From IMG/VR virus record IMGVR_UViG_2541047777_000011: a DNA stretch of 37,505 bases; one strand, given 5' to 3'. Position 1 is the first letter of the stretch; each line of letters starts with the position of its first letter. The DNA is from a virus (Duplodnaviria; Heunggongvirae; Uroviricota; Caudoviricetes). Of this stretch, positions 35,301 through 37,505 are shown one piece after another. A program made the position numbers.

Positions 35301-37505
35301 TGGCGACTCTTGACCTGAGTATCGTAGAAAAAGAAACCATCGATAATATATCCGGTAACGTGCGTCGTGCCTTTATCGGACTGTACGAAGAGAAGCAACT
35401 CTCTGATAACCAGGATTTACATAAAAAATACTTCTTGGAATTAATGGACATCATTGATAAGGGATTTGGCTTGTTAATGAAACAGAAAGGGATTCGAATG
35501 AACCCCCTTGAAAATTACTTCGCAACAAGAAGCATTAATTCCTGTGATTTAAAGCATCCCGCCACAGACGGGAGTGTTACAGTTAGCCATGAGATTTCGA
35601 TTAATCATTAAAATCAATAGCTATTTCAATAAGTGATGCCATCTCGTTGCATTTTGTTGAATTCATCTTACGTAATGAGTCACAAATATCTGATGGTTGT
35701 GATGCTGCTGGCAACTTAGCAGCAAGTAGCATAATTGCCGTTTTTATAGCAGTGAGTTCATCCGCAAGTCCAGCAGGAGAAACATCGTGGTTAAACTGGA
35801 TATTTACATTTTTACTAGTCATTTCACCCTCCTGAGGGTTGGTAATTAAGGAGTTCTCCACGGGTCAGATGGAGTGCGTGCGCCGGACACGGGTGAGAAT
35901 CCGACACTGACAGTTTACTGAAAGGATATGTCCCTGAAAAGTCAGGGCATAACGCGAAAGCGCACGGCGAAATTGGTCTCTCTGTACGGTGTCGTTAAAT
36001 TTAGTTCGACCGTGCGCTTCCGGTTGTGGCAATCCGCGAAATGGCGCGGCGGTAAGTATGGCGGGGTTATTCCTTCCCCGTTGAGGACACCGGGTTGTCA
36101 GGTTGACCATACGCTTAAGTGACAACCCCGCTGCAACGCCCTCTGTTATCAATTTTCTGGTGACGTTTGGCGGTATCAGTTTTACTCCGTGACTGCTCTG
36201 CCGCCCTTTTTAAAGTGAATTTTGTGATGCGGTGAATGCGGCTGAGCGCACGCGGAACAGTTAAAACCAAAAACAGTGTTATGGGTGGATTCTCTGTATC
36301 CGGCGTTAATTGTTAACTGGTTAACGTCACCTGGAGGCACCAGACACCGCATCAACAAAGTTCACTTCGGTGATGAAAGGTAAGAGAAAATGTTGAATGT
36401 AGCTATTGAAAACCAGTACGGGTGGAATTATAGTGCACCTGCACCTCATAAACCGGGTGCCGGGCGTGGAAACCCGAAAGTTACTCGAGCGCATAACCGC
36501 GCCGAAGCGGTTTTTTTATGCGTTAAGCACAGCCACATTCAGATAATGGTGGGGCGTGCAGGGCAGCTGCAAGGCTGGCCGGGTTCTCGAGTGACCGGTA
36601 TTTCCACCCCTGTACGTCTCGCCACCCTTATGGTCGTGGAAAGCCTCGGTGGTGAGTTAATTAACTTAACACTTGAGGATGCCATCATGGCTACTACCCT
36701 TACCCTTTCTCACCCTGACGTAACCATTGAAAATGGTCGCGCAGTCACTACGTCTATTGCGATCGCAGAATTCTTCGGCAAGCAGCATCACCATGTTGTT
36801 CAAAAAATAGAGGCCCTCGAATGTTCTGAACGCTTTTTAACCAGCAACTTTTCGCGGGTTAAATTCGAGCACCGTGGCAATACCTACAATGCCTACCAAA
36901 TCACCAAAAACGGCTTCGTTTTCCTGGTGATGGGCTTCACCGGCAAAAAGGCCGCTGCATTCAAGGAAGCCTACATTGCCGAGTTCGACCGCATGGAGGA
37001 AGAACTGCGCCGGAATAACACCACACCCGCTGACAAAATAATCCCGGGTGATGACCGAACCCTGGTTATCCGCTTCGACGAACACGGCTACATCAAATTC
37101 ACCGAAACCGTTCCTGATGGCGCACTGGTCTGTACTCTGGATACTTTCCGTTTTTATCTGGAAAAGCAGGGATGGACTCTCATAAACCGGGGCGCAATTA
37201 AAAATATGACCGTCGAGCAGTTGCTGAGTATTAAATAGTTTTCTGGAATTTCCTTCATATCACAAATTATTAAGGAGATTATTATGATTGCTCATCACTT
37301 CGGAACCGATGAAATACCACGCCAGTGCGTCACTCCCGGCGATTACGTTATGTATCAGGGAAGAACATATGTTGCATCTGTCAATGAAATTAAAAAACAC
37401 CGACTTTATATCCGGGGGCTTTGCACTCAGCATTGCATTAAGGACACCATGATTAAGGTCTTCCTCGGTCGTGACGGATTGCCCGCAAAAGCGGAATCAT
37501 GGTGA

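Follow-up and report, generated by a model that had tools for sequence, protein, structure and literature searches.

A conserved DicF block with an STnc100-like RNA fold and a predicted RNase III helix ahead of an antirepressor cassette in a Qin/Rac-like prophage

Introduction

What follows the small RNA (sRNA) DicF when dicB, the gene most often found after it, is gone, and what is the long-range inverted repeat that lies in between? The question is raised by IMG/VR record IMGVR_UViG_2541047777_000011, a 37,505-nt virus stretch (Caudoviricetes) that is referred to here in its whole length as the window and that supplies all coordinates. A first-pass annotation had marked 36154..36390 as a DicF sRNA kept in an otherwise rearranged early-left operon and followed by an inverted repeat, and had suggested a processed or structured leader before the next gene. 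We find that DicF is identical to the Escherichia coli K-12 RNA, that the repeat belongs to a 22-bp helix around a conserved four-hairpin domain whose variation preserves pairing, that this domain is related to the STnc100 sRNA family, and that an isrK / C4 / Rha cassette follows. We read the locus as the DicF block of a Qin/Rac-like lambdoid prophage, in which the helix would be an RNase III site, the enclosed fold would be STnc100-like and an antirepressor cassette would stand in for dicB. We put the probability of this reading at roughly three in four.

Results

DicF and its leader

Two features make up the upstream part of the block:
36154..36206, plus strand: DicF sRNA (Rfam RF00039), with its terminator hairpin at 36169..36205 and a T5 tract at 36207..36211
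35836..36153, plus strand: non-coding 5' leader of DicF, from the alignment with the ydfC-dicF interval of K-12 Qin

The Rfam model matches 36155..36206 on the plus strand over its full length (positions 1-52 of 52; 76.7 bits against a gathering score of 48; E 2e-15), and all 53 of the 53 bases of K-12 dicF (b1574) are present at 36154..36206. Because every base is identical to the K-12 RNA, DicF has no seed mismatches. The terminator is complete, with the GGCGG...CCGCC stem of the Rfam structure line followed by TTTTT; its absence from the output of a simple terminator scan is probably due to the compound nature of the hairpin. The first-pass annotation was thus right to call DicF and its terminator intact, and neither of the two outcomes that it had named as refuting, a failed Rfam call or seed mismatches, was found. 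From its identity to the characterised K-12 RNA (PMC5069750), this copy would repress ftsZ and other targets with Hfq.

DicF sits in a lambdoid early-left operon, with a helix-turn-helix repressor and a DUF1391/ydfA-like gene upstream. The leader aligns with Qin, and both K-12 Qin and phage Tritos are near-identical to the window from ~35836, through DicF, to ~36356, with different genes upstream of the leader. On this alignment, a non-coding block of ~35836..36367 is common to Qin and the window while the flanking genes differ. Hence the operon is rearranged as far as its genes are concerned, but what is conserved with Qin is the whole block and not only DicF.

Within the leader, a stem predicted by folding (35960..35970 / 36006..36017; GCGCACGGCGA / TCGACCGTGCGC) is conserved, and its loop is not the same in the window and K-12. 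A 190-nt DicF precursor is made by an upstream RNase III cut in the course of RNase III/RNase E processing (PMC10448788); by our arithmetic, that cut would fall at ~36017-36022, the 3' foot of the stem. Directly upstream of the leader, in the place of ydfC, a minus-strand open reading frame (ORF; 35601..35861, 86 aa, PHROG 7249, function unknown) runs antisense to the early-left transcript.

A 22-bp helix encloses four hairpins

Downstream of the T5 tract, three features form one predicted structure:
36213..36234, plus strand: 5' arm of the helix, from RNAfold, the consensus fold and pair counts; its inner part, TGATGCGGTG, is 36225..36234
36235..36344, plus strand: four hairpins within the helix; hairpin 4 (36300..36326) contains the palindrome
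36345..36367, plus strand: 3' arm of the helix, CACCGCATC-A-ACAAAGTTCACTT, with a bulged A at 36354

The inverted repeat exists, but it had been placed 2 nt off, at 36225..36236 and 36343..36352; its arms are TGATGCGGTG at 36225..36234 and CACCGCATCA at 36345..36354. RNAfold makes it the inner 10 bp of a 22-bp helix with one bulged A, and this helix encloses a four-hairpin domain. The neighbouring palindrome, TTAACTGGTTAA (36313..36324), is also present, but it is imperfect (5+5 around TG) and corresponds to the loop and 3' arm of an enclosed 10-bp hairpin. In K-12 the spacer folds alike with a longer predicted helix (~27 paired positions in dot-bracket notation) that runs outward to a pairing of the DicF U-tract with GUUGAGGA, a stretch that includes the Shine-Dalgarno sequence of dicB.

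A perfect 10-bp inverted repeat of this spacing is by itself unremarkable: with loops of 20-200 nt, the window holds 20, against 4.8 +/- 2.3 in dinucleotide shuffles. As about five are expected per shuffled window, a chance match has to be considered. When G-U pairs and one bulge are allowed (custom script), the 22-bp helix exceeds all others in the window, and 30 shuffles reach 16 bp at most; an ungapped inverted-repeat finder (at least 18 nt) missed it because of the bulge and the G-U pairs. Against shuffles, RNAfold gives the spacer a z score of -4.4 in the window and -5.1 in K-12. Contradicted by this extension beyond all shuffles, by its presence in 112 of 113 DicF copies and by variation that preserves pairing (below), the chance explanation is almost certainly wrong.

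The fold is conserved together with DicF

DicF copies were collected from IMG/VR and from species-representative genomes, and those with at least 330 nt downstream were counted (n = 113); a DicF-pattern scan of representative genome contigs found 8 loci and added little diversity. The element lies directly 3' of DicF in 112 of the 113 copies, and conservation of the spacer is no lower than that of DicF. The fold therefore belongs to the conserved dicF-dicB spacer, which K-12 Qin has in nearly identical form, and is not peculiar to the rearranged operon.

A consensus fold built from 36 distinct sequences has 44 pairs in five helices. Standard pairs fill 99.4% of its cells, a share that falls to 33-43% once the partners are shifted by 1-3 columns, and two-sided pair changes number 4 where 0.7 are expected (none of 500 shuffles reaches 4). 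Of the 21 pairs of the long helix, 8 are variable, and pairing is nearly always kept at them; at one position C-G occurs in 26 sequences, U-G in 7 and U-A in 2. This pairing-preserving variation is consistent with the pattern expected of an RNA and not of a DNA element.

The helix as a probable RNase III site

RNase III processing of the K-12 dicF-dicB spacer has reportedly been known since 1990, and the 5' end of DicF is said to be made by RNase E (Faubladier et al. 1990, as summarised in later literature). The 72-nt DicF species is generated by RNase III (PMC5069750, PMC9438474), and the dicA-dicF-dicB intergenic regions count among the classical RNase III substrates (PMC2777011); a transcriptome-wide map of RNase III cleavage treats DicF only in passing (PMC6212723). 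Projected onto the window, the published 72-nt end maps to 36225 (36154 + 71), the 13th nucleotide of the 22-nt 5' arm. At 22 bp with one bulge, the helix also has the length of about two turns (~20 bp or more) of an RNase III site. Because a two-turn helix is found with the mapped end in the middle of its arm, we infer that it is most likely the known dicF-dicB RNase III site, and place the exact cuts in the same way. With the usual 2-nt stagger the partner cut would lie near 36357, and the downstream RNA would start ~33 nt before the ATG at 36390. In K-12, whose helix has no bulged A, our arithmetic would put the corresponding two ends at about 1649453 and 1649584.

A put/nut-like role in antitermination was also considered and rejected: it finds no support in Rfam or in the sequence, and the element lies downstream of the terminator that would need suppression.

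The enclosed domain is related to STnc100

STnc100 is a multi-copy, Hfq-associated prophage sRNA of Salmonella and pathogenic E. coli, and a recent preprint relates it to the PasD sRNAs. The Rfam STnc100 model (RF02076) matches 36218..36359 with an E value of 6.6e-5 in a 921-nt stretch, 1.4e-5 in a 194-nt stretch and 2.7e-3 in the whole window. The same model scores 34.4 bits on the K-12 spacer, 39 on the spacer of IMG/VR contig L123 and 132 on one canonical STnc100 copy. In the opposite direction, a covariance model built from the DicF-linked elements only (R1) scores 35-56 bits on canonical STnc100 copies (E 1e-7 to 1e-13; 267 kb searched). In these 267 kb it has no match off STnc100-type copies, apart from the window's own element and its weak reverse-strand echo (27.7 bits). 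Its alignment to the canonical copies spans model positions 30-155, which are the inner closing stem and the hairpins. Because the covariance-model matches are reciprocal, the DicF-linked element and STnc100 are homologous in their core, and the enclosed fold with the inner helix (36218..36359) is a divergent relative of STnc100. In the literature searched we found no link of STnc100 or PasD to DicF or dicB, and the relationship may be new.

Could RNase III then release a second small RNA? By cuts on both arms, the spacer would yield an STnc100-like RNA of ~130 nt (~36226..36356) acting in trans, as is thought for STnc100/PasD. This is compatible with the DicF-block reading and goes beyond it. 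Core homology to an Hfq-associated sRNA family, conservation at least equal to that of DicF and a predicted fragment that keeps a 9-bp closing stem with all four hairpins speak for such an RNA; the missing 3' tail and terminator of canonical STnc100 speak against it, as does the finding of no report of it in the literature searched. We consider it possible but rather doubtful.

Canonical STnc100 copies have their own distribution. A permissive Rfam scan of the full window found none elsewhere in it. The late region of the window holds a tRNA cluster (26169..26478, minus strand: Gly-UCC, Thr-UGU, Lys-UUU, Met-CAU), and on the related IMG/VR phage contig L134 a cluster of this kind is followed, at a distance of a few hundred bases, by a canonical STnc100. 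Contigs L137, L141, L151, L161, L210 and others often carry 2-5 tandem or nearby canonical copies per phage contig, and some copies that are too diverged for an exact-pattern scan are still matched by R1.

dicB is absent and its annotation overlies the RNA fold

The first-pass annotation held that a Rha-family regulator stands where dicB would be expected, and proposed a search of every frame for a dicB-like small ORF. The replacement is borne out, and the search was negative: tblastn with K-12 DicB and YdfD found no homologue in the window (best E 0.72, elsewhere in the window), no frame of the window contains a dicB-like ORF (62-aa DicB homologue), and a Rha domain lies downstream. RefSeq, in its annotation of the matching prophage of E. 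coli IHE3034 (given here in window coordinates), nevertheless lists a pseudogene 'cell division inhibition protein DicB, partial' at 36276..36359, over hairpins 3-5 of the RNA fold. It continues with a Rha-family protein (36390..37238), kil (37284..37505), an exonuclease and an integrase, and leaves DicF, isrK and C4 unannotated at the locus.

The pseudogene raises the possibility that 36276..36359 is protein-coding, as the remnant of an N-terminally extended DicB. Besides the RefSeq entry, this would account for a GTG frame in K-12 that is open without a stop into the dicB ATG, and for 35-36 upstream codons after a start codon that are open in 100 of 109 dicB-type copies (32 codons in one more). 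Set against it are the lack of a Pfam match for the 35-aa ORF, the negative tblastn search of the window with K-12 DicB, sequence variation that keeps the RNA pairing, and the fact that dicB has its own GAGGA Shine-Dalgarno sequence and ATG. Furthermore, the extension is without a start codon in 8 of the 109 copies, namely those whose hairpin 3 has an alternative sequence. We find the coding explanation hardly credible. A role as an N-terminal DicB extension was rejected on the Pfam result and these eight copies, and we regard the RefSeq entry as an annotation artefact over an RNA structure, arising from an N-terminally extended frame and not from a dicB remnant.

An isrK / C4 / Rha cassette and kil follow the block

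Downstream of the helix, the plus strand carries:
36368..36405, plus strand: junction between the DicF block and the cassette (~38 nt), with AAGG at 36377..36380 and ATG at 36390; Qin homology ends here
36406..36434, plus strand: sigma-70 promoter of isrK (TTGAAA, 17-nt spacer, TATAGT; 10 of 12 consensus matches)
36441..36517, plus strand: isrK sRNA (Rfam RF01394, 66.6 bits, gathering threshold 50), with a terminator at 36495..36512 followed by T7
36542..36629, plus strand: C4-type antisense RNA (Rfam RF01695, 73.8 bits, gathering threshold 45), the equivalent of STnc1160 of Gifsy-1
36687..37238, plus strand: Rha-family antirepressor-like gene (Pfam Phage_pRha, E 6e-26; PHROG 995/518/373/63, transcriptional regulator / anti-repressor)
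37284..37505, plus strand: Rac-type kil, an FtsZ-directed division inhibitor (PHROG 294, E 3e-32; RefSeq kil)

In the homologous cassette of an Stx2 phage the alignment starts at about the -35 box, with the promoter at the same place, so the cassette brings its own promoter. On the plus strand of 35800..36750, the isrK promoter is the sole promoter and the isrK terminator the sole listed terminator. isrK has its own promoter in Gifsy-1 as well, where, in isrK-orf45-anrP, the short IsrK activates antirepressor translation from a read-through transcript (PMC4825925). The C4 loop GUUCUCGAGUGAC (36583..36595) is complementary to 10 nt of isrK (36480..36489) and also to the 11-nt CACUUGAGGAU (36670..36680), which covers the GAGGA before ATG 36687. 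For a further motif, UUUCCAC, there is a GUGGAAA partner on either side. Judged by these complementarities, the cassette follows the a1b1/a2b2 logic of P1 immI; the c4-a1b1 target family (RF03163) also gives a sub-threshold match (25 bits) overlapping isrK.

The Rha gene has a GAGGA Shine-Dalgarno sequence at 36675..36679, and an in-frame, orf45-like ATG at 36546 is followed by no stop before the Rha domain. The RefSeq start, ATG 36390, gives a coding sequence that spans isrK and C4, and the matches to Pfam Phage_ASH (residues 14-108 of the RefSeq ORF) and to the N-terminal part of PHROG 995 overlie these two RNAs. Because the RefSeq start lies upstream of the isrK promoter, the Rha gene more likely starts at 36687, or at 36546. 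With kil following the cassette, it is Kil and not DicB that this prophage pairs with DicF.

These features also bear on the proposal of a processed or structured leader before the next gene. The repeat is indeed part of a structured RNA, for which RNase III processing is predicted, but it is not simply a leader of the Rha gene, as a promoter, isrK with its terminator and a C4-type RNA intervene. A more specific version is that the helix acts as a translational leader of the next cistron (dicB in Qin; ATG 36390 here), which RNase III cleavage or unfolding would switch on. The predicted K-12 helix does take in GUUGAGGA with the dicB Shine-Dalgarno sequence, and 10-25 nt separate the end of the 3' arm from the start region in every variant. 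In the window, however, the helix stops at 36367, short of both AAGG 36377 and ATG 36390; use of that ATG is itself doubtful, located as it is upstream of the isrK promoter and opening a stretch that encodes two RNAs. Moreover, the Rha Shine-Dalgarno sequence is targeted by the C4 loop instead, and the outer U-G/U-A pairs are weak in K-12. A translational switch is therefore unlikely.

The base of the helix is a module boundary

Among the 112 copies with the element, the cargo after the helix is dicB in 104, kil in 3, an isrK cassette in 3 and other sequence in 2. The distal 3' arm occurs in cargo-specific variants, all of which still pair with the invariant 5' arm, and the window has the variant seen with non-dicB cargo. 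The same isrK-C4-Rha cassette recurs on L123, about 1100 nt downstream of DicF, where it separates the spacer from a dicB-like gene and is bordered by two versions of the distal 3' arm. Its right junction recreates AAAATTCATTGTTGAGGACGCGATAATG, the K-12-type distal arm with the dicB ribosome-binding site, which makes the cassette an insertion and the distal arm the recombination joint.

Such junctions could mean that the repeat works as DNA, either as a protein-binding palindrome or as a recombination site, with the RNA fold incidental. In favour are the position of the module junctions exactly at the distal 3' arm, the two arm versions that flank the L123 cassette and the occurrence of GTTAAC twice in tandem. 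However, it is only in RNA that G-U wobble pairs and compensatory changes make sense, the arms are ~110 nt apart, and there is biochemical evidence for RNA processing at dicF-dicB (PMC5069750, PMC9438474, PMC2777011). A purely DNA-level function is very unlikely.

Origin and other features of the window

Over the stretch 35860..37505, the window shares 99.9% identity with a prophage found in E. coli IHE3034, in O18 and in many further isolates from humans; in IHE3034 the prophage adjoins tRNA-Ser and mtfA. At least 80% of this stretch is found in one piece in 333 of 5426 complete E. coli genomes (~6%). Further upstream in the window, a relB / relE-parE pair (34323..34801) lies between the cI/DicA-like repressor (33894..34295) and the ydfA-like DUF1391 gene (34995..35225), an insertion that falls inside the presumptive start of the early-left operon. 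A sok antitoxin RNA (120 bits; 30412..30587, minus strand), which implies a hok/sok locus, lies beside a weak, sub-threshold isrK-like match (27.8 bits; 30172..30253, minus strand).

Discussion

Together, the observations suggest the following course of events. The early-left transcript would carry DicF and would end at the intrinsic terminator of DicF itself, giving the 53-nt form, or continue by read-through and be processed. In the latter case, the ~155 nt after DicF would fold into four hairpins closed by the 22-bp helix (36213..36234 / 36345..36367), and RNase III would cut this helix, leaving the 72-nt DicF isoform, splitting DicF from the downstream message and giving the latter a 5' end near 36357. 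The enclosed fold is a divergent relative of the STnc100/PasD group, with a closing stem that has grown from ~9 bp to 22 bp. At its base the helix also marks a module boundary that is mostly followed by dicB and here by a self-promoted isrK / C4 / Rha-antirepressor cassette of the P1 immI / Gifsy-1 isrK-anrP type, and then by kil.

Several points weigh against this account. The STnc100 match at 36218..36359 reaches 31.6 bits, below the gathering threshold of 47, and we do not file the element as an STnc100 member because it scores below the curated threshold and is not a stand-alone gene. Covariation gives modest support, because sequence diversity is low (effective sequence number 0.94 in R1), and it consists mostly of one-sided G-C/G-U changes. 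The assignment to RNase III goes back to a 72-nt length quoted in secondary sources, and processing of the window copy is a prediction made here from sequence. Finally, one DicF copy does without the element (L127, Salmonella enterica CP191473.1), so DicF is not strictly dependent on it. Downstream of DicF, L127 has unrelated sequence, the last part of a Rha-like gene and a kil-like ORF.

Most of the biology at this locus is already known, since DicF, its processing by RNase III as well as RNase E, and the isrK/C4 antirepressor cassette have all been described; the novelty is confined to the STnc100 relationship and to the particular mosaic. For annotation, the locus is misleading in three ways: three RNAs are missing, a DicB pseudogene is drawn over an RNA fold, and the Rha coding sequence is started before an sRNA promoter. 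The link to STnc100/PasD offers a testable idea on the role of a widespread, functionally uncharacterised prophage RNA fold and suggests where the boundary of the Rfam family could be widened. It also leads to a bolder proposal, namely that the dicF-dicB spacer is in general a functional RNA, a stable STnc100/PasD-type domain of ~130 nt excised by RNase III from read-through transcripts. We hold this to be quite doubtful. If true, the dicBF operon and every DicF-bearing prophage would encode a second, unrecognised regulatory RNA, whose closing helix would double as the recombination joint for cargo exchange. As for the mosaic, a prophage of the type found in extraintestinal pathogenic E. coli couples DicF to an antirepressor switch and Kil, not to DicB. 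Judging from gene content, the swap of Kil for DicB would change which division inhibitors are co-expressed when the operon is derepressed.

Comparison with known systems

[quoted passage not shown] DicF is identical there, the leader, terminator, long helix and four hairpins are alike apart from a few substitutions, and the position downstream of a DicA-like repressor and a ydfA-like gene is the same. The distal 3' arm is CAAAATTCATTGTT in K-12 and ACAAAGTTCACTT in the window, and both pair. In contrast to Qin, the window is without dicB-ydfD, has other ORFs in place of ydfB/ydfC and carries relBE inserted upstream.

With STnc100/PasD the element shares a core in which GGUGAAU flanks the closing stem and which further has a GC-rich first hairpin, a variable one and one of ~10 bp, with the motif UCACCnGGAGGCACCnG(G/A)CACC. 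In the canonical STnc100 copies examined, GCAUGGUG/CACCAUGC closes the core, and promoter, 3' tail and terminator belong to the RNA gene itself, whereas the DicF-linked element has no promoter, 3' tail or terminator of its own. These canonical copies are stand-alone genes, of which one is located immediately past a tRNA cluster and another, as reported, 75 nt downstream of stx2; the window element forms part of the early-left operon and comes straight after DicF. With 22 bp, its closing stem is longer than the ~9 bp of canonical copies, and the additional 13 bp would make it a two-turn RNase III substrate.

The cassette resembles Gifsy-1 isrK-orf45(STnc1160)-anrP and P1/P7 immI (C4, a1b1/a2b2, icd-ant) in its promoter, its isrK with a leaky terminator, its C4-type RNA and its Rha/antirepressor gene, and in a C4 loop complementary to both the isrK region and the antirepressor Shine-Dalgarno sequence. 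It differs in its location in the early-left operon directly after a DicF block. It also differs from Gifsy-1 in that orf45 there ends in AUGA, while the orf45-like frame of the window is fused in frame to the Rha gene.

Lastly, the helix is comparable with the intercistronic RNase III helices of rpsO-pnp, metY-nusA and the T7 early spacers, where a helix of ~22 bp likewise forms from sequences that flank a spacer and where cleavage separates functional RNAs that are transcribed as one unit. In the window, where cleavage is predicted, the helix holds a large, conserved multi-hairpin domain in place of a simple loop.

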